Source of the DNA: Candidatus Uhrbacteria bacterium
GTDB taxonomy: Bacteria; Patescibacteriota; Patescibacteriia; UBA9934; UBA10169
DNA length: 64,000 nt
Direction: 5' to 3'
NCBI GenBank assembly: GCA_016187485.1
Contig: JACPJO010000005.1
Location: 226,385 to 290,384, forward strand
In this document: in pieces, positions 4,947 through 64,000 of the stretch
How positions within the stretch are numbered: position 1 is the first letter of the stretch
How the letters are laid out: the number at the start of each line of letters is the position of its first letter
Made by a program: the position numbers and the translations under genes
Notes under the pieces: generated by a model
The model's database searches: none
What the model was told of the DNA's origin: nothing
Seen by the model: the letters and a program-made list of their open reading frames with translations, nothing else

Positions 4947-5003
4947 AAGTTAACTATTCGCTTATTCGCACGAATTAGAGAAGGATGGACGTTTTTTCGA
5001 GAG
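4947..5003 (-). repeat. junction/leader repeat copy 1 (orphan, no downstream gene); overlaps the last codons and stop of the Nudix gene
   Basis: gttaactattcgcttattcgcacgaattagag...ttttttcgagag aligns with the copies at 7575-7633 and 9352-9414. Confidence 0.7.
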
Positions 5004-5508
5004 CCGCTAGCGCCAGAAGCCCTGTTGTCGTATCAGTAAGATCCCCCGTAGCAAGGTGATTGCGAAATTCGTCGACCGGCATGAGAATCACATCGATCTT
5101 TTCGTCTTCATCTGTATGAGGTTCTGTTACTTTCCGGCAATGGGTCGCAAGAAAATGATATCGTCGACAAGTTGAGTATGCACAATCCCATGTTGAACCC
5201 ACGAGGACGAGATCTCCTTCGTAACCTGTCTCTTCTAAAAGCTCACGACGCATGGCTTGGAGAGGCTCTTCCCCCACATTCATACCACCGCCAGGAAGTT
5301 CGCGTAAAATACTCCCGGGTCCTGGACGAAATTGCGCGGCGAGAACAGCGTGTCCATCTTCCGTAATAGGAAGACTACAGACCGTATTGCCCTCCAGTTT
5401 TACATCAATGTCTATCTCACGATCATCATCACACCGATACGTCCGCCGTTCGATTTTCCGATACCCATCATAAACAAGTTTCTTCGATACGAGTTCCCAT
5501 GGTTTCAT
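4975..5508 (-). CDS. Nudix hydrolase
   Basis: Nudix box GGGMNVGEEPLQAMRRELLEETGYEG. Start placed at the internal Met (MKPWELV) because the track's longer ORF (to 5631) runs through tRNA-Ala. Confidence 0.7.
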   Translation of the reverse strand: MKPWELVSKKLVYDGYRKIERRTYRCDDDREIDIDVKLEGNTVCSLPITEDGHAVLAAQFRPGPGSILRELPGGGMNVGEEPLQAMRRELLEETGYEGDLVLVGSTWDCAYSTCRRYHFLATHCRKVTEPHTDEDEKIDVILMPVDEFRNHLATGDLTDTTTGLLALAALEKTSILL

Positions 5509-5601
5509 AGCCGCTCTAGGATACACCCATTCGTGCACAAACCAAACCCCGCCCTTCGCGAAGGGCGGGGTTGGCGGTCTCGGGCGAAATCTTTCGATCT
5601 C

Positions 5602-5678
5602 TGGTGGACCTGACCGGGGTCGAACCGGCAACTCTAGGTGGCAACCATAGCGAGGTTACCGATTACCTCTACAGGCCC
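5602..5678 (-). tRNA. tRNA-Ala (anticodon UGC; G3:U70 and A73 identity elements; non-canonical anticodon-loop context)
   Basis: Minus-strand reading GGGCCTGTAGAGGTAATCGGTAACCTCGCTATGGTTGCCACCTAGAGTTGCCGGTTCGACCCCGGTCAGGTCCACCA: 7-bp acceptor stem with G3:U70, T-loop TTCGACC, encoded CCA. Confidence 0.75.
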
Positions 5679-5817: not shown

Positions 5818-5834
5818 CCGATTCTGGGGAAAAG

Positions 5835-7574
5835 TCATCCGTTTTTCTCGAGATACGCCAGATAACAATCACGACACAGAATACGTCGGTTTGGGTACCT
5901 ACGGCAAACAGTTACAAGAAGCGGCTTGCTACATTTTGTACACACGCGATTCTCAAACTGCGCGATTTGCGCTGACCACGACATCTGCTGCATACGTGGA
6001 ATAAAGTGCTCGCCGGGTGGAGCAATCCTCCATTTTCGGTAGTGCTCAACTTCCGGCTTCAAGAAGGAGAACGCACGCTTTGCCTGCTCGTCATAGATCG
6101 GAACGCCAATCCATGCGTCCGTGAGATCATCAATATTGTCGGGAATGTCCGCTAATTGGCGCGTCTTAGACATATCGTATCGATCGACACCCGTTGCACC
6201 CGCGTCTGTCGGAAGAAATTGGTTACCTCCAAGGATGCGTAGATCTTCTTCTGTGGAGCCTGCATACAACACCGAGCCAGACTCGGGAATGTACGAGGAG
6301 GAAAATGTCGTTGGGAAAATAGATCCGTATGTACCCTCGTCCATCATCGCGCACTCCATTGCGTCCACCGTCTTCCAGTACTCCTCTTCCGTGTACGGTT
6401 TGTTCAGAATGTGAAACTCCTTGTGCGCCAGACCGACGCATCCAAAACAGTTTCGACAATCGCGGCAGACCATGCAGTATTCGCTGTCCTCGCAACGCAC
6501 GGAACGATAACAAAACTTGAGACGATTCGAATCTGGACACGTTTCCACGCTGTAACTCTCATTCGTATTCACAGCTCCCCACGCATACGCGTTGCCTTGC
6601 GAAGCGCCGTATAACCATGCAGAGCGAAAATTATCCACGGCCGTGTCTTCCGAATCAAAGCAGAAATGACATCGTGTCGCGTTGTGGAGATAGTCTCCCG
6701 TTGCATCTGTCCCGCCGACGTTAAAGTTTTCGGGCCAAAAGGCGTGTGTAAGCAGCAGTTCGTCGAATCGCTTTGACCATTCATCAACAATCGAGCGCTT
6801 TCCAAGATCGATCGCCGCTATACGAGCTCGATACTCTCCTTCGGAAAGCTGTTCATTCATGAATAAAAACTTTCGATTCCGTTTGTTCGTGGCGCCAAAA
6901 CAGTGTTCGCAATTTCGGCAGTCAAAGAGAAAGGCTGACTCGAGACAGTCCTGTGATTCGCGCGCGTACCGACAACGATACATGCGATGAGAATGTGAAA
7001 TGTGGTGTGATTCTTTCACGCCAGAGGAAAGGTACACGACCGAGGAATCTTCCGTGTCCATGGCACCGACACCGAAAAACGTGCGTTTGCTCTGACATGC
7101 AAAAACAAAATAACTGTTCTGATCTCCAAAGGAGAGGAGTGCCAGTGAGTTTTCTGGCGGTACGATGTTTGCGGTTGCAAAAAACGGTACGCGGAGTTCG
7201 AGCGCACGCAGTTGTTCGAAAAATGGTTTCGAGAGGTCAAGCGTTTCATGGGTATTCGAAAAATCCTGCTCATACCATTCGGCATCGGGCAGCACGCGGA
7301 TGCCGGAGGCTGGGTGATGAAAGGAGAGGATAGGTTCCCCCGTTCGCGCATGTTTGTTCCACCAAAATTGAAAACCGATATCAAAATACCCTGCCCATTT
7401 CCATCGCGTATTCGGCGACAACTCCGACGGCGGGACATTAAACTTCTTGTACCACCCGATTTCCTCCTCGGTCATCATCCATTTCTCGCCCGTCAAAGCA
7501 CACACCCGCTCACCGAGTTTTGCGGCGTCGAGGACGGCTTTTACCTTCAAATCGTAGTTGGGAGTTTTACTCAT
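5835..7574 (-). CDS. Cys-rich protein of unknown function, paralog B (579 aa)
   Basis: Long ORF with repeated C-x2-C-x2-C-FG modules (DCRNCEHCFGATNKRN..., CMVCRDCRNCFGCVGL) and a C-terminal CxxC...CxxC zinc-ribbon-like end. About 50% aa identity to the upstream paralog, with nearly identical N- and C-termini. No recognisable enzyme motif. Confidence 0.6.
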   Translation of the reverse strand: MSKTPNYDLKVKAVLDAAKLGERVCALTGEKWMMTEEEIGWYKKFNVPPSELSPNTRWKWAGYFDIGFQFWWNKHARTGEPILSFHHPASGIRVLPDAEWYEQDFSNTHETLDLSKPFFEQLRALELRVPFFATANIVPPENSLALLSFGDQNSYFVFACQSKRTFFGVGAMDTEDSSVVYLSSGVKESHHISHSHRMYRCRYARESQDCLESAFLFDCRNCEHCFGATNKRNRKFLFMNEQLSEGEYRARIAAIDLGKRSIVDEWSKRFDELLLTHAFWPENFNVGGTDATGDYLHNATRCHFCFDSEDTAVDNFRSAWLYGASQGNAYAWGAVNTNESYSVETCPDSNRLKFCYRSVRCEDSEYCMVCRDCRNCFGCVGLAHKEFHILNKPYTEEEYWKTVDAMECAMMDEGTYGSIFPTTFSSSYIPESGSVLYAGSTEEDLRILGGNQFLPTDAGATGVDRYDMSKTRQLADIPDNIDDLTDAWIGVPIYDEQAKRAFSFLKPEVEHYRKWRIAPPGEHFIPRMQQMSWSAQIAQFENRVCTKCSKPLLVTVCRRYPNRRILCRDCYLAYLEKNG

Positions 7575-7633
7575 AATGTAACTATTCTCTTATTCTCACG
7601 AATTAGCCGAGTTAGCTGTTCTTTTCGAGATAC
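7575..7633 (-). repeat. junction/leader repeat copy 2: covers the stop region of paralog A and the 5' leader of paralog B
   Basis: gtaactattctcttattctcacgaattag...ttcttttcgagatac; contains the imperfect palindrome ctaattcgtgagaatag, which ends 4 nt before the start codon. Confidence 0.7.
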
Positions 7634-9351
7634 TCCAGATAGCACGGCCTGCAATAGATCGTTCTCTTCCGGTACGTCTGGTTAATTGTTACAAGCAGGG
7701 CCTTCGCGCACTTGCCACACGTCGTTTCTTTCCATACCTCGGAGTTTGCTTCCCTCCAGAAAGAGTAGACGCGGTCAATGAAATGACTCGTGGGAGGCGC
7801 AAGACGGTGCTTGCGGTAGAAATCAAGCTCGGGTTTGAGGTAGGAAAAACGTCGTTTGATGTTCGCGTCGTAGATCGGAACACCAAGCCAGTCCTCATCC
7901 TTCATGTCGTCAATGCAATCCGGAACGTCGTTTGTGCTACGTAACTTGCTCTCGTCAATCTCTCCAACAGCACCACCTGACTCCGGCTCAAAATCCAAAG
8001 GATGAAAGTCCTCGTTCCTTGCTGCCGTTTCCGGATACTGCACAACACCACCGTCCGGCCAGTAACCGACGAAAAAGCTCGCGGGAAAAAACATCCCATA
8101 CTCCCCTCGCTCAAGCATCGCCACTTTCACTTCGTCAAGTTTGGCGTAGTACTCCTCTTCCGTGTACTGCTTGTTGAAAAGGCAAAATCGTTTTCGCTGA
8201 AGTCCGAAGCATCCAAAACAATCTTCACAGTTGTAACAGTAGTAACAATACTCGACGCTCTGGCAATCCTGAATAGAGTACGAAAACGCACACTTCGCGC
8301 AGCGTGGGGCGATATTGCAAAGATAGATCTCACTCGCACTCATCGGTGCGCCAGAGAACGCACAGGCAGAACACTCCCCGTACGGATAGGAGACGTGATA
8401 GAGGTCTCGATACGGACCGTTCATGCCAGCAAAGACGAACTTGCAGTCCACGGCGTTAACCATGTACTCACCGATGACATCGGTACATTTTTCATTAAAG
8501 TTCTCTGGCCATACTGTATTCCTTTCCATGAGATCAAGGAATCGCGCCTTGTATTTCTCGAGTTCCGACCGTCGAGAGAGATCAACTTCCGCAAGGCGTT
8601 TTTCGTACTCGCTTTTTGAGAGTTGCTCATTGAACCAGAGGTACTGTTTATTGCGCTTGTTCGTTGCTCCAAAACATTTTTGGCAGTTGCGGCAGTCAAA
8701 AAGAAAGAGTGAATCGATGCAATCAAAACAGATGTGCGCAAACTTACAGTTGTGCATGCGGTGAGACTGCAAGATACGAAACGAGGAACTTATATTACTC
8801 CCGGCCGATGACTCGGCTGAATCTTCGAGCATGTAGGTATCGGTACTGTAAAAACTGTTCTTCGACTTGCACGCGCAGACGAAGTAACTGTTCACGTCAC
8901 CGATGGAGGAGATCGTAATGGAGTTGTGCGGCTGTTCGATGTTGCGCGAGGCAGGATAAGGGATTTTCAGCTGAAGCTCGCGCATCTGTTCAAAGAAGGA
9001 ACGCTCGAGATGGATAACGTCCTGAACAATGTGTGAAAAGTCTTCCCCAAACCATTCCTCGTCAGGAAGCGTCTGCAAACCGGTGGACGGATGGACCGTC
9101 GAGACAAACCGCTTCCCTGTCTTTGGGTGCGTGCGATACCAAAATTGATACATCTCAAAATACCCTACGACTTCTTTCATCCTCGTTTCCGGCGACCACG
9201 GATGCGGTGGCACATTGAACTTCTTGTACCACCCAATTTCCTCCTCCGTCATCTCCCATTTCTCCCCCGTCAACGCACAAACTCGCTCGCCTGGTTGTAC
9301 AGTATCGAGAATCGCTTTTACTTTGGCATCGTAGTTGGGAGTTTTGCTCAC
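7612..9351 (-). CDS. Cys-rich protein of unknown function, paralog A (579 aa, GTG start)
   Basis: Same architecture as paralog B (DCRNCQKCFGATNKRN..., CYYCYNCEDCFGCFGL, C-terminal CGKCAK...CRPCY). The first ~40 codons and the 5' leader are about 85% identical at DNA level to paralog B. Confidence 0.6.
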   Translation of the reverse strand: MSKTPNYDAKVKAILDTVQPGERVCALTGEKWEMTEEEIGWYKKFNVPPHPWSPETRMKEVVGYFEMYQFWYRTHPKTGKRFVSTVHPSTGLQTLPDEEWFGEDFSHIVQDVIHLERSFFEQMRELQLKIPYPASRNIEQPHNSITISSIGDVNSYFVCACKSKNSFYSTDTYMLEDSAESSAGSNISSSFRILQSHRMHNCKFAHICFDCIDSLFLFDCRNCQKCFGATNKRNKQYLWFNEQLSKSEYEKRLAEVDLSRRSELEKYKARFLDLMERNTVWPENFNEKCTDVIGEYMVNAVDCKFVFAGMNGPYRDLYHVSYPYGECSACAFSGAPMSASEIYLCNIAPRCAKCAFSYSIQDCQSVEYCYYCYNCEDCFGCFGLQRKRFCLFNKQYTEEEYYAKLDEVKVAMLERGEYGMFFPASFFVGYWPDGGVVQYPETAARNEDFHPLDFEPESGGAVGEIDESKLRSTNDVPDCIDDMKDEDWLGVPIYDANIKRRFSYLKPELDFYRKHRLAPPTSHFIDRVYSFWREANSEVWKETTCGKCAKALLVTINQTYRKRTIYCRPCYLEYLEKNS

Positions 9352-9414
9352 AAAGTAACTATTCGCCTATTCGCGCGAATTAGAGAAGACGGTTAGCCGT
9401 TCTGTTCGAGATAC
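9352..9414 (-). repeat. junction/leader repeat copy 3 (contains the perfect palindrome attcgcgcgaat)
   Basis: gtaactattcgcctattcgcgcgaattagag...ttctgttcgagatac immediately upstream of the paralog A start. Confidence 0.7.
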
Positions 9415-9461
9415 GCGAGATAGAAAGTATGAAACAGAATACGCCTATCTTGGCTTACGCA
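9393..9461 (-). pseudogene. relic C-terminal fragment of a third Cys-rich paralog
   Basis: Minus-strand frame gives (TGA stop) CVSQDRRILFHTFYLAYLEQNG*; compare the paralog B end CRRYPNRRILCRDCYLAYLEKNG*. No upstream body is present. Confidence 0.55.
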
Positions 9462-9483
9462 TCAATTTCTGGAGAAAAGTCTC

Positions 9484-10917
9484 TCATTTTAGTTCCCTCG
9501 CCGCTTTGGCAAATGCCTCGCCGAGTTGTTTAGCAGCTGACGTATCGCTGTAGCCCAACGCCGGAGAGAAAATGACAGCATCGGCACTTGTGGCCGCCTG
9601 ACTCGCCGTCACAACGGCATCTGGCATATTTTCTGCACGCAGTATTTTGACCTCCTCAGTTTTTCCCATCACATGCTCAAACGCATCGCTCCCCGCTCCC
9701 GGCAACAAGACAACACTCTTACACACCAGCTTGCACACCTTTGCGAGCTCGTCGAGGTTCCCTTCCTTTACGTCTCCACCGGAAATCAAATGAATCGAAC
9801 GCCCGCGTTCGCCAAATCGGCGCAGAACATTTGTCGTCGCTTCGGCCGAGGACCCAAGCGCATCGTTCACATAGATCACCCCCGACACATCAGTGACAAT
9901 CTCTTGGCGATCATCTTCAGAAGAAAACGCTTTCACAACTTCCGCGCAAGATGCATTCTCCACGCTGTAAAGTTTTGCAACCGCAATCGCCGCAAGCACA
10001 TTACGCACATTATCGTCGCCTTCGAGATGAATGTTAGAGACAGGCATGATGATGTCATTCAAAGAGGTGACGTTCCCATCCTTCACACACACCCCCTCCT
10101 TCCCTTCCAGCAGTAAGAGCGAAAACCAAACGACGCGTCCTGGTGCTTTCTCTGCTAATCCTCTTACTTGATCTTGATCAGCATTCAACACGGCAATGCC
10201 ATCCTTTCCCCCTTTTGCAAACACCCCAACCTTTGATGCCGCATACGCCTCCATCGACGCATAGCGATGTAAGTGATCGGCATACATGTTGGTCAACACC
10301 CCGACCTCTGGCCCACGATCAAGATGATCGAGACTCTCAAGCAACCAGGACGACAACTCAAGCACAATCGGCGCGGGTTCTTTCCATGCAAGAATCTCGT
10401 CCAAATATTCAAGTGGCGACACGCGCATGTTTCCCGCCACAATCGTTTGAGGATTCTTCTTTTTTAGAAGTTCGCCGATCAATGCCGTCGTGGTCGTCTT
10501 GCCACGCGCCCCGGTAACACCGATCACCGGATACGGACAAAACTGAAAAAATAAACTCACATCTGATTCCACCGGCACCCTATGCGCATACGCCATCTTC
10601 ACCCACGGCGAATCATGCGGCACATCGGGATTCGTGATGACAAGCGCCACATCCGTGAAATCCTCTTCACGATGTTCGCCCAGCACAAAAATCGGGTGGT
10701 ACAACTCCCGGTCGGGAAGTGTTTGGCGATATTCTTCAAACCACCGTGTAACTTCATCCACCGATTCACGAAGCTCCTCGTTCGTTCGATGATCGGTAAT
10801 CACCACTTGCGCGCCATGACGGATGAGCCACTTTGTTGCGCCTACGCCGCTTCCGCGTTTTAAGCGACCAAGCCCCATGACCGTCACAACAGCATCTTGA
10901 ATATTGGAGACCTCCAT
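9484..10917 (-). CDS. murD: UDP-N-acetylmuramoylalanine--D-glutamate ligase (MurD)
   Basis: Start placed at MEVSNIQDAVVTVMGLGRLKRGSGVGATKWL (MurD N-terminal Rossmann-like domain); Mur ligase P-loop GVTGARGKTTTTALIG. The track's N-terminal extension overlaps the upstream GT2 gene. Confidence 0.75.
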   Translation of the reverse strand: MEVSNIQDAVVTVMGLGRLKRGSGVGATKWLIRHGAQVVITDHRTNEELRESVDEVTRWFEEYRQTLPDRELYHPIFVLGEHREEDFTDVALVITNPDVPHDSPWVKMAYAHRVPVESDVSLFFQFCPYPVIGVTGARGKTTTTALIGELLKKKNPQTIVAGNMRVSPLEYLDEILAWKEPAPIVLELSSWLLESLDHLDRGPEVGVLTNMYADHLHRYASMEAYAASKVGVFAKGGKDGIAVLNADQDQVRGLAEKAPGRVVWFSLLLLEGKEGVCVKDGNVTSLNDIIMPVSNIHLEGDDNVRNVLAAIAVAKLYSVENASCAEVVKAFSSEDDRQEIVTDVSGVIYVNDALGSSAEATTNVLRRFGERGRSIHLISGGDVKEGNLDELAKVCKLVCKSVVLLPGAGSDAFEHVMGKTEEVKILRAENMPDAVVTASQAATSADAVIFSPALGYSDTSAAKQLGEAFAKAARELK

Positions 10918-10931
10918 AAAACAGAAGCATT

Positions 10932-11576
10932 TTACCTCTTGTGCCAAGAAGATGCCACCAACGCTCCGGCCACTTGGCCCCACATGCGCACATACTGCCA
11001 TAGTCCGCGCCGCCACCCGACCTTCGCCACTTTTGTCCGGATACGCACACCCGTAAGGAGAATCGCTTGTATTCTCCCTCCTTTTTCCCGACATAATGCG
11101 TTGAGAGCAATCTCCACACGATACCCCGAGAGCTGTCCAGACGGGCACGAGAGGAAAAGGGTGCGCGACAGACATCGTTCCCCGCTCACAAGGGGGAGAA
11201 GACGCATAAGCGCAACCAGCAAGGCTCCGCGATCCCGGAGCCCCACACTCATCACGGCTTGCCCTCGCTCCACGGGCTCAAAAAGTTTTTGCACGTGTTC
11301 ATGGGTGATACCGTAGATATCCGCATCCAAAAACATGACAAATGCCGTGTGCGCTGCCTCGACCCCCACACACATGGCGTGTCCCTTTCCTCCGCGGGCC
11401 AAAAGCTCAATCACGCGGGCGCCAGCCATATGAGCCCTTTGCACTGTCCTGTCCGTTGAACCATCCGAGACAACTAAAACTTCCTCCACAAGCGGAGCAT
11501 TCTTTACTGCCGCCGCAACATCCCCAACGGTAGCTTCTTCATTGTAGGCAGGAATGACGATGGTGAGAGATTTCAT
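10932..11576 (-). CDS. family 2 glycosyltransferase
   Basis: MKSLTIVIPAYNEEATVGDV...VVSDGSTDRT...FLDADI: the GT-A fold DxD region. Confidence 0.7.
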   Translation of the reverse strand: MKSLTIVIPAYNEEATVGDVAAAVKNAPLVEEVLVVSDGSTDRTVQRAHMAGARVIELLARGGKGHAMCVGVEAAHTAFVMFLDADIYGITHEHVQKLFEPVERGQAVMSVGLRDRGALLVALMRLLPLVSGERCLSRTLFLSCPSGQLSGYRVEIALNALCREKGGRIQAILLTGVRIRTKVAKVGWRRGLWQYVRMWGQVAGALVASSWHKR

Positions 11577-14197
11577 ACAGCGAGCGGTTTGGTAAGCGGG
11601 CGACGAAAAACCCGCATACCCCACTTATAGCACTCCACAAGAGCAAGCTCCGCAATAATAATCCCGCCGATCCACGCAAGGTGTACGGGCACTGGCAGAA
11701 CAAAACCAAACACGGGGAAAAACACCGGCAGAAAAGCAACGGCCGTCAGTGCAACACCGATAAGAAAAGAGAGATTGAGCAAGCGATTCGTGAAGAAACC
11801 ATCTTGCCATAACGTTGTGCGCGAACGCCGCAAAGGAAATGCTAAAGCGAGCGTTTGAAGTGAGACGAGCACAAAAATGACGGAACGTGCAGACGAAACT
11901 TCTGTTCCAAACGAGAGAAGAATAGCGTAAAGGATAAAAGGGATCGCAGAGAGAACAAGACCGAGACCAAAGACAAGCCCACGCATCTGCACATCGACAA
12001 TAGGCGTGCGACGGGGGCGCGGGGACTCCTCCATTACCCTTGCTTCTGCCGGATCAATCGTGAGCGCCAACGCAGGCGCAGAATCCGTGAGAAGGTTGAT
12101 ATAGAGAATGGGGGCTGCCAGCAACGGAGCAGGTAGCTTTGTAAAAATAGAAAGGATCACAAGGATCATTTCCGTCCAACTTGTAAGCAGGAGGAAGCTT
12201 ACAATCTTGCGGATATTTTCAAACATCGTCCTTCCCTCCTCGATCGCGGCAACAATCGTCTCCAAGTTGTTGTCGAGCAACACCATGTCTGCCGCTTCCT
12301 TTGCCACCTGCGAACCCGTGCCGAGCGCCACCCCCACATCCGCAGCCGCAAGTGCCGGCGCATCATTGACGCCATCGCCCGTCATGGCTACGACGCCGCC
12401 GTTGGTCTGCCACGCCCGCACAATACGCACCTTATGTTCCGGCAGAACACGCGCAAACACATCCACAGAAATGATGTGTTCCGCCAGCTCACGATCCGTC
12501 ATGCGGTCAACCTCTGTGCCAACAAGCACGCGCGGAACAGCGGCAAGGCGAATTTCTTTCGCTATTGTCTCGGCAGTTTCAGGATGGTCGCCCGTAATCA
12601 TTACCGTGCGTACACCGGCGGCACGCGCCCGTGCAATAGTGTCCGCCGCGGTTGCCCGCACCGGGTCGTGAAGCGCTATCCAACCGACAAACACACATTG
12701 ATCAAGCGTGAGAGAATCCAAACTTTTTTCCCCGTCGGCGGGCATAAAAGCAATGCCAAGCACGCGCAGCCCACGCCGTGTTTGTTCCCCGGCTTTGTGG
12801 AGAAATTGCTCACGCTGCTCGGGCGAAAGCATCTCCACTCCCCCTACTCCCAATGTACGCGAACACATACCAAGCACATGCTCTACCGCCCCTTTCACCA
12901 GCACTTCGTGAGAACCTTCCATATTTTCTGTAAGTACCACCATGTACTTGCGCGCAGAATCGAAGGGGATCTCATCTGCCCGATGATGCCGTTGCCGAAG
13001 ATCATCCACTTTGTATCCAAGATCTTTTCCTAGAAGTAACAGCGCCGTCTCGGTAGGCGATCCAAGTTCGGGAGACGTCGCGTCATTGCAGATCATGCCG
13101 ACTTCGATCATCTTGCGGCGCGCATGAGACATGCCGGCCTGGGAAAGCGCCGAGACTTCCGCGGGACCTTCCTGTGTCATGAGTACGGATGCGCGCATCT
13201 TTGCCTCGGTGATCGTTCCTGTCTTGTCGGCACAAATCACGCTCACGCTCCCGAGAGTCTCGGTGGCAATAAGCCGTCGGACAAGAGCCTTGCGCCCCAG
13301 CATGCGACGCATGCCCACGGCCAGAACAACGGTCACGGCCACAAGAAGCCCCTCGGGAATTGCGGCGACCGCGAGCGCTACGGCGAGAAAAAACATGTCC
13401 GACACTGTCGTGCCACTCGCCCATCCCACAAAAAAGATGAGAACAGAAAGGGATAAGAAAAGCACAGACAGAAACCGCCCGAGCTGACGCAGTTCTCTTT
13501 GAAGCGGCGTCTCTGGTTCCCGAGCTTCTCCCACCATTTTTGCAATCCGGCCGATCTCGGTATCCTTGCCCGTCGCCGTCACCACCACTTCGGCGCGACC
13601 CGCCACAATCAGAGTGCCCGCGTAGAGCATATTTGTCCGTTCAGCAAGCGGCGTCTCAAGAGAAAGCGCCCCTGTCGCCTTTGCTACCGGAAGGGACTCT
13701 CCGGTAAGCGGCGCTTCGTCCGCTTCCAAATGCTCCGCGCGCAACAGCCGCGCATCCGCCGGTACGCGATCTCCAAGCCCGAGCAATACAACATCACCGG
13801 GAACAACCTGCATCGTCTCGATTTCCTGTGCTTCACCAGCACGCCGCACGCGACACGTTTGCACGAAAAAGTTCTGTAACTCTTCAAGCGCATGGTTGGC
13901 TTTGTACTCCTGCAAGAATCCAACAGTGACATTAACCAGAGCAGCGCCAACGATAAAAAAGGCATCGACCAGATCTCCCACAAACACGCTTGCCACCGCC
14001 GCAAGAAGGAGGATTCCCATGAGAGGGCTCTTCGTCTGGCGGAGAAGAATAGTGACCGACCCTGCAGGTTTCTTGCGGGGCAAAGTGTTGAGTCCGTGTG
14101 TATGCAGACGCTCGGTGGCTTCGTCTGCGGAAAGGCCAGTTGCGCGCCCACGAAGACGTTCGAGCACATGCATTTCGGATGTCGTATGAAACAACAT
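11573..14197 (-). CDS. P-type cation-transporting ATPase (type II, Ca2+/Mg2+-like)
   Basis: DKTGTIT phosphorylation motif, MITGDHPETA, GDGVNDAPAL, N-terminal cation-ATPase domain, about 10 TM helices. Confidence 0.85.
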   Translation of the reverse strand: MLFHTTSEMHVLERLRGRATGLSADEATERLHTHGLNTLPRKKPAGSVTILLRQTKSPLMGILLLAAVASVFVGDLVDAFFIVGAALVNVTVGFLQEYKANHALEELQNFFVQTCRVRRAGEAQEIETMQVVPGDVVLLGLGDRVPADARLLRAEHLEADEAPLTGESLPVAKATGALSLETPLAERTNMLYAGTLIVAGRAEVVVTATGKDTEIGRIAKMVGEAREPETPLQRELRQLGRFLSVLFLSLSVLIFFVGWASGTTVSDMFFLAVALAVAAIPEGLLVAVTVVLAVGMRRMLGRKALVRRLIATETLGSVSVICADKTGTITEAKMRASVLMTQEGPAEVSALSQAGMSHARRKMIEVGMICNDATSPELGSPTETALLLLGKDLGYKVDDLRQRHHRADEIPFDSARKYMVVLTENMEGSHEVLVKGAVEHVLGMCSRTLGVGGVEMLSPEQREQFLHKAGEQTRRGLRVLGIAFMPADGEKSLDSLTLDQCVFVGWIALHDPVRATAADTIARARAAGVRTVMITGDHPETAETIAKEIRLAAVPRVLVGTEVDRMTDRELAEHIISVDVFARVLPEHKVRIVRAWQTNGGVVAMTGDGVNDAPALAAADVGVALGTGSQVAKEAADMVLLDNNLETIVAAIEEGRTMFENIRKIVSFLLLTSWTEMILVILSIFTKLPAPLLAAPILYINLLTDSAPALALTIDPAEARVMEESPRPRRTPIVDVQMRGLVFGLGLVLSAIPFILYAILLSFGTEVSSARSVIFVLVSLQTLALAFPLRRSRTTLWQDGFFTNRLLNLSFLIGVALTAVAFLPVFFPVFGFVLPVPVHLAWIGGIIIAELALVECYKWGMRVFRRPLTKPLAV

Positions 14198-61910: not shown

Positions 61911-62069
61911 AAGGGTAGTATAGCAAAAAAGAGATCAACGTAAGGAGGACAACATAGGTACACAACAATTCGAAAACCCCGCGGATATGCGGGGTTGGGT
62001 GAGAGCGAGGCCTAACGCTGGGTCAGGCCCCGCTCCACCAAGAAAGAACACTCTGTACGAGAACCTGCT

Positions 62070-63999
62070 CTACGGAACGAGCGGGTTCGTGTCGTCCGGA
62101 TCGTCGCAGACGTTGGTTCCGTCCGCGTCCTCGTCCACACCGGGGTTCACCGACGGGTCGAGGTCGTCGCAGTCGTCACCGCCCACAGCAGGCGGATCGC
62201 CGACCCAGGGCGAGCACTCGACGTAGAGGTCGCCGTCCTGGTCCTCTTCGAGGTCCTGGTCGGTCACATCGCAGTCGGAGTCCACGCCGTCGCACGCTTC
62301 GGGAGCGCTCGGGAAGACGGTGTCATCCGTGTCGTCGCAGTCGCCCGGCGCCGATCCGTCGCTGCAGACGGGAGTGGCGTCGCAGAACCCGTCGCCGTCG
62401 TCGTCCACAAAGGGGGTGCCTTCGTCCACGTCACCGTCGCAGTCGTCGTCCGCGAAGTTGGGAACCTCGGGATCGCCGGGAGAGATGGCGGGGTTGGCGT
62501 CGTTGCAGTCGCCGGCGCAAGTGGTAAATCCATCGCCGTCGGCGTCGAACCCTTCGTCCACAGACGTGTCGCAGTCGTCATCCACGCCGTTGCACGTCTC
62601 CGTGGCAGCGGGGTTGACGGCCGGGTTGGCGTCGTTGCAATCGCCTGCGCACACGCGCGACCCATCACCGTCGCCGTCAGCTTCGGTGGCGGGAACGGAA
62701 CCCGAGCAGTCGTTGTCGAGTCCGTCGCAGATCTCGGGATTGCCAGGGAACATGGCCGCGGAAGTGTCGGCGCAATCGCCGTTGCATTCCGCCACCCCAT
62801 CGCCGTCGTCGTCCGTTTCGGTTGCGGGCACCGCGCCGTCGCAGTCGTCGTCGGCCCCGTTGCAGGCCTCGGCAGCGGCCGGGTTCACGCTCGGGAGGAC
62901 ATCGTTGCAGTCCCCTTCGCAGACCCGGAAGCCATCGAGGTCGCTGTCGGCCTCACTGCTTGGCACGTTCCCGTTGCAGTCGTTGTCGAGTCCGTCGCAC
63001 GCTTCGGGAGCGCCGGTGAAGACAGTGGCGTCCGAGGCGTTGCAGTCGCCCTCGCACGCGCTCTGTCCGTCCCCGTCGGGATCCAGTTCGTTGGCTGGCA
63101 CACCGCCGGCGCAGTCGTTGTCGAGTCCATCGCAGATCTCGGCGGCACCGGTGAAGATCGTCGGGTTGGCGTCGTCGCAGTCGAATTGGCACTCGAACTG
63201 GCCGTCGCCGTCGGCGTCGTCTTCGGTGCTTGCCACAACGCCATTGCAGTCGTCGTCCACGCCGTTGCACGTCTCCGTAGCAGCGGGGTTGACGGCTGGG
63301 TTGGCGTCGTTGCAGTCACCCTCACAGATCATTGAGCCGTCAGCGTCCGCGTCGGCCTCGTTGGCGGCCGGAGAACCGTTGCAGTCCTCATCGTCCCCGT
63401 TGCAGAGCTCGGAAGCTCCCGGGAGCGTCGCGGGATCGGTGTCGTCGCAATCGCCAGCGCAGACGGAGACGCCGTCGGCATCGGCGTCGGACTCAGTGGC
63501 GGGAAGCCCGCCGTCGCAGTCGTCGTCGTTGCCGTTGCAGAGTTCCGGCGCGCCGGGATAGGTGAGCGGCTCCAGGTTGTCGCAGTCGCCCTCACAGGAG
63601 GTGAAGCCATCCGCGTCGCCGTCGAAACCCTCGTCGATCACGCTGTCACAGTCGTTGTCCTGGTCGTCACAGATCTCCGAGGCCGTCGGGAAGACAGTGG
63701 GTTCCGTGTCGGCGCAGTCGCCTTCACACGTGCTCCAGCCGTCGGCGTCGGCGTCGAATCCTTCGTCCACGAGGGCATCGCATTCGTTGTCCTGCCCGTC
63801 GCAGACTTCGGTGGCGTCGGGGTTCACGAGGGCGTCGCCGTCCTGGCAATCGTCCTCGCAGACCATGAAGTCGTCGCCGTCGTTGTCCACCTCGTCGCTT
63901 GGCAGGCCGTCCACGCAGTCGTCGTCCACGCCGTTGCACGTCTCCGTGGCGGCAGGATTCACGCCTGCGTTGCCGTCGTCGCAGTCTCCGCCCGGCACG
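62070..63999 (-). CDS. secreted Cys/Asp-rich repeat protein with MopE-like putative metal-binding motifs (partial; N-terminus lies beyond the window end)
   Basis: About 13 tandem ~45-aa repeats of DADGDG...C.GDCND..P.VNPAA.E.CNG.DDDC.G; the frame is open to the window edge, so the GTG/Met at 63998 is probably internal. Confidence 0.55.
   Translation of the reverse strand, partial: VPGGDCDDGNAGVNPAATETCNGVDDDCVDGLPSDEVDNDGDDFMVCEDDCQDGDALVNPDATEVCDGQDNECDALVDEGFDADADGWSTCEGDCADTEPTVFPTASEICDDQDNDCDSVIDEGFDGDADGFTSCEGDCDNLEPLTYPGAPELCNGNDDDCDGGLPATESDADADGVSVCAGDCDDTDPATLPGASELCNGDDEDCNGSPAANEADADADGSMICEGDCNDANPAVNPAATETCNGVDDDCNGVVASTEDDADGDGQFECQFDCDDANPTIFTGAAEICDGLDNDCAGGVPANELDPDGDGQSACEGDCNASDATVFTGAPEACDGLDNDCNGNVPSSEADSDLDGFRVCEGDCNDVLPSVNPAAAEACNGADDDCDGAVPATETDDDGDGVAECNGDCADTSAAMFPGNPEICDGLDNDCSGSVPATEADGDGDGSRVCAGDCNDANPAVNPAATETCNGVDDDCDTSVDEGFDADGDGFTTCAGDCNDANPAISPGDPEVPNFADDDCDGDVDEGTPFVDDDGDGFCDATPVCSDGSAPGDCDDTDDTVFPSAPEACDGVDSDCDVTDQDLEEDQDGDLYVECSPWVGDPPAVGGDDCDDLDPSVNPGVDEDADGTNVCDDPDDTNPLVP
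62100..63999. repeat. tandem DNA repeats (period about 135 bp, GC-rich) encoding the MopE-like protein repeats
   Basis: Recurring gtcgtcgcagtcgcc / gccgttgcacgtctccgtggcagcggggttgacggc blocks. Confidence 0.6.
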
Positions 64000-64000
64000 C

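Follow-up and report, generated by a model that had tools for sequence, protein, structure and literature searches.

Two adjacent Cys-rich genes of equal length lie directly downstream of murD in a genome segment of Candidatus Uhrbacteria, and the locus raises the question of what such a tandem pair does and whether it is a place where genes diversify rapidly. The window analysed here is the whole stretch of 64,000 nucleotides (nt) of contig JACPJO010000005.1. On the whole, our analysis places the two genes in a family of the Candidate Phyla Radiation (CPR, Patescibacteria) whose arrays adjoin genes for VirD4/TraD-like ATPases, and indicates that this pair itself consists of old family members. 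The two genes are as follows.

7612..9351, minus strand: gene A, open reading frame (ORF) of 579 amino acids (aa) with a GTG start
5835..7574, minus strand: gene B, paralog of A, 579-aa ORF with an ATG start

Both genes indeed have 579 codons, as stated in the first-pass annotation, which had been made from the letters of the window. Gene B is the public protein HYW18_03940 of a Candidatus Uhrbacteria metagenome-assembled genome (MAG). For gene A, the public gene call gives a 546-aa product (P0001) from an internal ATG start, which affects the N-terminal stretch encoded at 9253-9351 on the minus strand. Since the N-terminus MSKTPNYD is conserved family-wide, the true start of A is the GTG at 9351.

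Distribution of the family and its arrays

A word-indexed search retrieves more than 513 relatives with lengths of 575-581 aa, all labelled 'hypothetical' and all from Candidatus Uhrbacteria or Patescibacteria. A profile search against 1.84 billion cluster representatives yields 3,400 clusters (at 50% identity), 1,269 of them at E <= 1e-30. The more distant members come from Peregrinibacteria, Peribacteraceae and Gracilibacteria, and from Jorgensen-, Brenner- and Giovannonibacteria. The phage, plasmid and IMG/VR collections contain zero family matches. The searches agree that the family is confined to CPR/Patescibacteria, a restriction which the first-pass annotation had raised as a question. 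A mobile-element origin was considered as well and rejected, with no match in these three collections and no adjoining integrase or transposase among the annotated window ORFs. Literature searches on the family, on PF13451/PF23477 and on DUF8128 returned nothing relevant.

In species-representative genomes, family genes form head-to-tail arrays of 2 to about 12 genes, such as eight copies within 12 kb in locus L017 and about twelve consecutive copies in CAMTUG010000001. The gaps between copies are often a few nt (1-2 nt in the L073/CAMTUG array), the protein length is strictly kept at ~577 aa, and fragments and frameshifted copies occupy some array positions. In one MAG of the ~1 Mb class, the retrieved loci together contain at least 22 full-length copies. 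Tandem arrays with decayed edge copies, as read from the window at first, are thus found both as arrays in other genomes and as a relic here. End-fragments occur in several arrays. In L001, at about 8220-8245, a stray ATGTCCAAAACTCCCAACTACGAC (MSKTPNYD) stands ~65 nt upstream of the real start of a 75% identical relative of gene A and is an N-terminal relic; others are found at L007 5813-5890 and L046 195-284.

Linkage to DUF8128 and VirD4/TraD-like ATPases

Evidence that bears on function comes from the gene neighbourhood of the arrays. Of 78 family-centred loci, about 18, representing at least 16 species-level MAGs, have a gene for a putative type IV coupling protein (T4CP) adjoining the array, and two Peregrinibacteria have it also. 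Independent metagenome loci give a similar picture, 19 of 76 having a T4CP-like neighbour, 18 of these on the same strand. A reverse test was centred on homologs of T4CP2, a 470-aa ATPase, in five CPR lineages, including the window organism or a near-identical strain as well as Jorgensen-, Brenner- and Giovannonibacteria. In all five (5/5) the same strand carries family members at a distance of 0.06-3.5 kb downstream, and the family hidden Markov model confirms them with E from 1e-50 to 1e-252. The common order is secD-secF-(sigma factor)-DUF8128-(small transmembrane protein or ATPase 1)-ATPase 2-family gene(s), at times followed by ATPase 1. The arrays and the ATPase module are therefore linked across CPR.

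As to the members of this module, the Uhrbacteria form of DUF8128 has a transmembrane-like N-terminal stretch (one copy checked). The ATPases exceed the Pfam cut-offs of T4CP families, with 45 bits against 20.5 for TrwB_AAD_bind and 30.8 against 20.1 for T4SS-DNA_transf, and TraG-D_C is exceeded also. The longer ATPase 1 (T4CP1) carries in the loci checked a C-terminal CxxC-x17-CxxC ribbon, CTRCGKHMILPVELDKSRPIYCEDC, which resembles the C-terminus of the family. Neither VirB4 nor other channel genes of a type IV secretion system (T4SS) are present in the loci examined. BacA is the second recurrent neighbour, found in 12 or more loci at the far array end.

The window locus has neither a coupling ATPase nor BacA, and for this reason the murD-linked pair is regarded as a satellite locus. 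The main ATPase-linked locus of the window organism (or of a near-identical strain) is L155, which encodes a protein recorded on the same contig as gene B; T4CP1 is found there at 8131-9987 and T4CP2 at 9991-11436. Genetic linkage to a coupling protein is thus found for the family and for L155, not for A and B themselves.

Some further observations were made in these loci. In Giovannonibacteria an IS200-type Y1 transposase gene (L158 9197-9832) lies between the coupling ATPase and the family gene. L075 has a gene for a 23S_rRNA_IVP or bAvd-like four-helix bundle at 11557-11904, between the array and bacA, with no reverse transcriptase seen nearby. In L004, L005, L008, L012, L017, L023 and others, arrays and T4CP modules appear under the label 'uncultured Gammaproteobacteria', and these labels are probably wrong.

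The same ATPases also match PADLOC mad8 (E 1e-13 to 1e-18) and, weakly, HerA models. This raises the alternative that the family supplies sensor or effector parts of an anti-phage or anti-plasmid conflict system with HerA/FtsK-type ATPases, as such systems often have zinc ribbons and diversified paralogs. We consider it unlikely. A and B have no PADLOC match of their own, nuclease, protease and NADase domains are absent, and the ATPases are above the Pfam thresholds for T4CP families. Moreover, the module occupies a fixed chromosomal site (after secDF) across CPR classes, unlike patchy defence islands, and its paralogs are old and orthologous between species.

Protein architecture

A and B are proteins of ~67 kDa with a pI of 5.6 and 23-28 Cys, in which neither a signal peptide nor a transmembrane-like hydrophobic stretch was found (maximum KD19 about 1.0). 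With hmmscan, nothing in Pfam, NCBIfam, PHROGs or PADLOC is above threshold for either protein, and sequence searches of the PDB, with the single protein or with the profile, give no match. The first-pass annotation recognised no enzyme family, and there is none in Pfam or NCBIfam; no homology to a housekeeping enzyme was found.

AlphaFold2 models, built on 50-54 homologs, reach a predicted local distance difference test (pLDDT) score of 91.3 and a predicted TM-score (pTM) of 0.90 for A, and 89.2 and 0.88 for B, with the same layout of secondary structure. In the models, residues 1-60 form an N-terminal helix and a beta-hairpin-helix unit of degenerate treble-clef type, followed after residue 60 by small hairpins with the near-invariant H75 and H87. 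Then come a beta-solenoid (~150-240) with a long helix, a second one (~300-395) again with a long helix, a variable linker (420-475), a second E-x2-FY-x-K-x3-PP unit (~490-530) and the C-terminal ribbon. The two solenoid modules are homologous (residues ~164-257 against ~315-409, hhalign probability 98.6%, E 7.5e-16) and end in four-Cys closing blocks, C-x8-C-x2-C-x2-C-F-G and C-x2-C-x2-C-x2-C-F-G-C. The conserved Cys groups are C211/220/223/226, C372/375/378/381 and the ribbon C545/548/567/570.

The C-terminal ribbon, C545-x2-C548-x18-C567-x2-C570, follows the CxxC-x17-CxxC spacing with one residue more; C545, C548 and C567 are invariant and C570 is kept in 38 of 50 sequences. Zinc binding by CxxC-x17-CxxC proteins has been shown experimentally (PMC12704099). 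Against TIGR04272 and zf_Tbcl_2 (PF23477), A and B stay below the cut-offs of 36 and 27 bits, while the relative P0144 obtains 23.1 and 26.2 bits respectively, both sub-threshold. Neither A nor B matches zf_Tbcl (PF13451, gathering cut-off 24 bits); distant family members score 14-16 bits, and there are precomputed PF13451 matches for Peregrinibacteria homologs. At the N-terminus, the finger of A and B retains C25 alone of four Cys (GERVCALTGEKW ... SPETR) and has no two CxxC pairs. The Jorgensen-, Brenner- and Giovannonibacteria members among the Parcubacteria relatives have the complete finger, CQNC...CPEC, in the pattern CxxC...F.I...E.F.FYEK..VP.P..CP.CR. Because these relatives keep the full CxxC...CxxC, the Uhrbacteria N-terminus is a degenerate finger. 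One family member, P0240 (731 aa), has an N-terminal GNAT acetyltransferase domain and is a possible fusion.

The neighbours and the solenoids together bring in the alternative of stand-alone enzymes of the cell envelope or the lipid carrier, for example solenoid-type transferases whose paralogs differ in substrate. The neighbours murD (window and L006), BacA (12+ loci) and glycosyltransferases with Wzy_C accord with such a role, as do the invariant polar residues E38, D97, D104, Q243, E367, N393, Y396, D406, D495, R500, E508, H523 and R527. However, neither the Hexapep Pfam repeats of left-handed beta-helix acyltransferases nor another enzyme Pfam model matches A or B, and Foldseek gives TM-scores < 0.12 with E-values > 1e-3. 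The structural matches of the solenoids are generic, with higher scores for curli, adhesins and antifreeze proteins. In addition, 10-22 paralogs in a ~1 Mb genome would be odd for a housekeeping enzyme, and BacA, always at the far array end, fits plain ancestral synteny. Such an enzymatic role is therefore improbable.

The Cys content had been noticed from the beginning, and the repeated Cys modules are present, with CRNCQKCFG and CYYCYNCEDCFGC both occurring in the A/B translations. Two conserved four-Cys blocks per protein and 23-35 Cys in each would suit iron-sulphur (Fe-S) or redox and metal-buffering proteins whose blocks bind clusters, the ATPase linkage being incidental. But many of the other Cys columns swap with Ser, Val or Thr, the behaviour to be expected in a solenoid core. 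Both the ferredoxin motif CxxCxxCxxxCP and the radical-SAM motif CxxxCxxC are missing from the translations, the latter as stated in the first-pass annotation, and no Pfam Fe-S family matches. Since the conserved synteny would also be left unexplained, we hold this alternative to be very unlikely.

Age of the paralogs

The first-pass annotation had described the pair as nearly identical at both ends and variable in the core, and had read this as recent duplication or gene conversion, as in a variable effector, receptor or immunity locus. Over the full length A and B have 46% identity and 62% positives (BLASTP). Residues 1-60 are 80-82% identical, which bears out the conserved N-terminal ~50 residues, and other segments vary from 20% to 60%, with the minimum of 20% at residues ~300-360. 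The last ~40 residues are about 45-63% identical instead of nearly identical, the agreement being limited to the four Cys and to the ~10 residues at the very end (CYLxYLEKN). The description of the core holds for its overall level, but the core is not uniform, as the two C-x2-C-x2-C-F-G blocks (residues 221-260 and 381-420) are conserved between A and B as well as the ends. In DNA, a gap-free 209-nt direct repeat (7398-7606 against 9175-9383) of 78% identity comprises the leader and the first ~177 coding bases of both genes. Identity is 82% at -23..+36 and 40-60% in the gene bodies, slightly under the ~85% first given for the 5' part, with the same trend.

How old, then, are these copies? The relatives of A in other organisms are 75, 58, 57 and 54% identical to it and those of B 58%, so that each is closer to relatives elsewhere than to the other. 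For 143 of 154 non-redundant members the nearest relative is found in another species-level MAG, with a median best identity of 45.8% within the MAG and 61.7% across MAGs. The synonymous sites between A and B are saturated, apart from codons 1-60 with their mild deficit, where the proportion of synonymous differences (pS) is 0.55-0.58 against ~0.75-0.9 and the same codon is used in 26/40 against 88/200. The identity profile of A against B follows the family-wide conservation profile (r = 0.69). In the first 150 nt, A or B shares 0.73-0.82 identity with paralogs of other organisms and 0.79 with its neighbour. The family-wide profile and the equal 5' identity across organisms show that purifying selection on the N-terminal domain suffices without any gene conversion. 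Conversion between A and B had itself been considered, as the 5' end of B first looked A-like, and was dropped as unnecessary since paralogs of other organisms have the same identity.

Copies have nevertheless been gained and lost. In UBA10169 the orthologous murD locus, which reads P-type ATPase, GT2, murD ... family gene, Mur ligase, contains a single copy, while the window has two and a relic, which agrees with the variation in copy number suggested at first; birth and death of copies does occur. A contingency-type locus, with fast duplication and gene conversion and with ends homogenised by recombination, would draw on this difference between species, on the tandem layout, the relic, the fragments and pseudogenes in other arrays, and the mildly lower synonymous divergence in codons 1-60. 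The cross-species relationships, the saturated sites, the identity profile equal to the family-wide constraint and the equal 5' nucleotide identity with other organisms' paralogs all contradict it, and so do the strict ~577-aa length and the lack of small conserved partner (immunity-like) ORFs between array copies. We thus find a contingency locus highly improbable. As judged from the sequence comparisons, A and B are old lineages, and the window pair are ordinary old members, not a hot spot of ongoing diversification. In this respect the observation of the first-pass annotation is real and its evolutionary reading partly right.

The intergenic motif

The conserved leader upstream of the two genes contains a 25-nt motif, CTAATTCGCGCGAATAGGCGAATAG, in which two 8-mers stand in tandem and a 12-bp palindrome, ATTCGCGCGAAT, overlaps the first of them. 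Exactly three copies occur in the window, where 0 are expected by chance.

9359..9383, minus strand: motif copy 1, CTAATTCGCGCGAATAGGCGAATAG, ending 7 nt before the GTG of A
7582..7606, minus strand: motif copy 2, CTAATTCGTGAGAATAAGAGAATAG, ending 7 nt before the ATG of B
4954..4978, minus strand: motif copy 3, overlapping the stop codon of the NUDIX gene (4975..5631), with no ORF after it on the same strand

In copy 2 both 8-mers are altered together, from GCGAATA to GAGAATA. The motif is found in other loci as well, at L006 5971-5995 and 7760-7784, at L001 1648, 3438, 4123 and 10017, and at L155 13551, 15322 and 16003. Among 17 non-redundant instances, 10 end 2-14 nt before the start codon of a family gene, and the remaining ones include sites before HD_3, ArsR-type HTH and Mur-ligase genes. 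In L155, the main locus of the same organism, the motif also precedes Peptidase_S51 and HTH genes. These sites belong to one Uhrbacteria clade. The motif is missing where the array gaps measure 1-2 nt, and also in the Parcubacteria loci. The leader conservation reported at first therefore stands for the 5' identity, but as an element it is a dispersed 25-nt motif, which in other species also precedes non-family genes.

For the leader as an RNA, Rfam gives no match, and a leader hairpin was rejected because the small hairpin in the leader of A is not preserved in B. An attC site was rejected likewise, the motif being too short and too different. We infer that the motif is a clade-specific element acting at the DNA level. 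It would serve as a promoter for mRNAs with short leaders or else as an operator, to which the ArsR-type regulators of the arrays (such as that at L155 11498-11743) might bind.

Relic, flanking repeats and neighbouring genes

The other features around the pair are listed below.

9393..9461, minus strand: relic of a third copy, its last 22 codons and stop, from translation, tblastn and repeat family D2
9467..9481, minus strand: 15-nt GACTTTTCTCCAGAA, directly past the murD stop, one half of an imperfect direct repeat
5822-5836, minus strand: 15-nt GACTTTTCCCCAGAA, its repeat partner, overlapping the last two bases of the gene B stop codon
8668-8695 and 8212-8239 in A, 6894-6921 and 6441-6468 in B, minus strand: four 28-nt repeat copies (family D3) from the repeat search
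9484..10917, minus strand: murD, directly upstream of the A/B block (Pfam Mur_ligase_M, Mur_ligase_C and MurD-like_N)
5602..5678, minus strand: tRNA-Ala(UGC), downstream of gene B (ARAGORN, Rfam tRNA)

The relic, with the translation CVSQDRRILFHTFYLAYLEQNG*, had been noted upstream of A as a 22-codon C-terminal remnant. Both tblastn (E 0.049 within the window) and a 52-nt repeat with 77% nucleotide identity to the end of gene B (family D2) confirm it, and of 154 family C-termini compared, that of gene B matches it best. Both ribbon Cys in the relic are changed to F, so the relic is dead. The 15-nt repeat pair (consensus GACTTTTCyCCAGAA) brackets the block of relic, A and B; its score is equalled in 0.06% of random window pairs, and the pair could be the mark of an old insertion or recombination junction. 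The D3 copies encode the C-x2-C-x2-C-F-G blocks, that at 8668..8695 being the first block of A, and the four copies mark an internal duplication within A and B.

The place next to murD in the division and cell wall (dcw) region is as described at first, with Pfam murD adjoining, and the cluster is a loose one, with MraY, FtsW, MurG, MurD, Ddl, a Mur ligase and DivIC. The murD ortholog in the syntenic locus L006 is 64% identical. As listed, the murD ORF (563 aa, to 11175) has an N-terminal extension of ~86 codons (10918-11175) which overlaps the GT2 gene (10932-11624), and the true murD start is probably near 10917 (MEVSNIQDAVV...). Just downstream of the tRNA-Ala, at 5545-5572 on the minus strand, there is a strong GC-rich hairpin of 12 bp, AACCCCGCCCTTCGCGAAGGGCGGGGTT, with a T-rich tail behind it; lying inside the annotated 5' end of the NUDIX gene, it suggests that this gene starts later than the listed TTG. 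At the other end of the window (62000-64000) the G+C content rises from ~0.54 to 0.67, and the minus-strand ORF at 62070-63998, which extends past the window end, has 13 Cys-rich repeats of Cu-binding_MopE type (E 1e-106). It looks like the large Cys-rich surface proteins known from CPR.

Proposed role and comparison with known systems

The functional statements made here draw on gene linkage and structure prediction and are worded accordingly. The conserved linkage makes the family the best candidate partner of the orphan ATPases of Patescibacteria, and we give about an even chance to the proposal that the family proteins are partners or clients of an orphan coupling-ATPase module. Under this proposal the family proteins would attach to the ATPase module by their zinc-ribbon termini. 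The binding specificity of the individual paralog would come from the variable solenoid faces and the linker, and the paralogs would act as substrate-specific adaptors or be translocated clients themselves. The single module copy in some lineages favours the partner or adaptor role, while the massive expansion seen in Uhrbacteria speaks for clients that have diversified. More tentatively, DUF8128, the small transmembrane protein and the two VirD4-like ATPases might form a CPR machine without T4SS channel genes nearby, to which the family would be the dedicated partner. It might then replace the relaxase or pilot in DNA/protein trafficking, or its paralogs (up to 20+ per Uhrbacteria cell) might be specific adaptors choosing the traffic into or out of the host-dependent cell; we look on this extension as a possibility with the chances rather against it.

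Several points weigh against a role at the coupling ATPase. The support is gene linkage rather than interaction, and the window genes A and B are not beside a coupling ATPase. Most copies in multi-copy genomes are at satellite loci, so that under this model they would have to act in trans. The BacA (12+ loci), murD and glycosyltransferase contexts make an envelope-related role possible. The ribbon similarity between T4CP1 and the family is weak (hhalign probability 39%, E 3e-4), and the DUF8128-T4CP fusions of Peregrinibacteria have no clear transmembrane segment by simple hydropathy. Besides, the single conserved module copy in some lineages would suit a core partner more than an effector that is secreted. 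The envelope-enzyme, conflict-system and Fe-S or redox explanations given above are possible and explain less.

Adaptor complexes on a VirD4-type coupling protein are familiar from DotL. In Xanthomonas and Stenotrophomonas, VirD4 recognises the X-Tfe effectors through the conserved XVIPCD domain (PMC8740702). Like VirD4 substrates and adaptors, our family has genes linked to a T4CP-family ATPase, conserved terminal modules with a variable remainder, and several paralogs per genome. Unlike them, it has both termini conserved and a fixed length, no toxin domain or immunity gene, and neither VirB4 nor another channel gene in the examined loci; its translocation is putative, and in some lineages it is also a single conserved copy inside the ATPase module.

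For the ATPases themselves, a 2025 survey counts 5,713 VirD4-like T4CPs in 2,918 Patescibacteria genomes, about 2 each, of which only 148 are near virB4, with relaxases almost absent, and its authors keep exaptation as a possibility (PMC12102498). The ATPases next to our arrays are of the class counted there, mostly far from virB4. The T4CP and effector sections of that survey make no mention of a partner family or of conserved T4CP neighbours, and what is new here is the linkage of T4CPs to the 550-580-aa family and to DUF8128. The VirB2 pilins of Patescibacteria also form tandem arrays, with about 25% identity (PMC12102498), and the family shares with them the head-to-tail order, the strong divergence (32-50%) and the association with T4SS-family genes. 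However, the pilins are small membrane or secreted proteins beside virB4, while the family proteins are soluble, of 67 kDa, and beside T4CP genes.

With respect to structure, the known beta-solenoids CsgA (8c50), Tenebrio antifreeze protein (1ezg), LpxA, LpxD and GlmU have 2-11% identity over less than 1/4 of the protein. In contrast to solenoids of the CsgA, antifreeze and LpxA types, the family has no hexapeptide Pfam match or signal peptide, and zinc ribbons and helices flank its solenoids. The CxxC ribbon ends are shared with the zf_Tbcl_2, TIGR04272 and zf_Tbcl proteins, including small proteins of Methanosarcina mazei (PMC12704099). Yet A and B are below every cut-off, their N-terminal finger lacks three of the four Cys, and the known zf_Tbcl_2 and zf_Tbcl members are, unlike A and B, small stand-alone proteins. 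The large extracellular Cys-rich proteins of Peribacteria (PMC4736985), considered also, were set aside as a different class, being of ~1,655 aa with signal peptides. The family core has no Pfam model, which is a gap in present annotation.

For the window itself, the outcome is modest, namely old family members at a satellite locus. A large part of bacterial diversity belongs to the CPR/Patescibacteria, which are epibionts with genomes of ~1 Mb. In such a genome, 10-22 copies amount to about 3-4% of the whole, so the family must matter to these bacteria. The linkage reported here supplies a candidate partner family for the orphan coupling ATPases of Patescibacteria, and with it the question of their role becomes testable.

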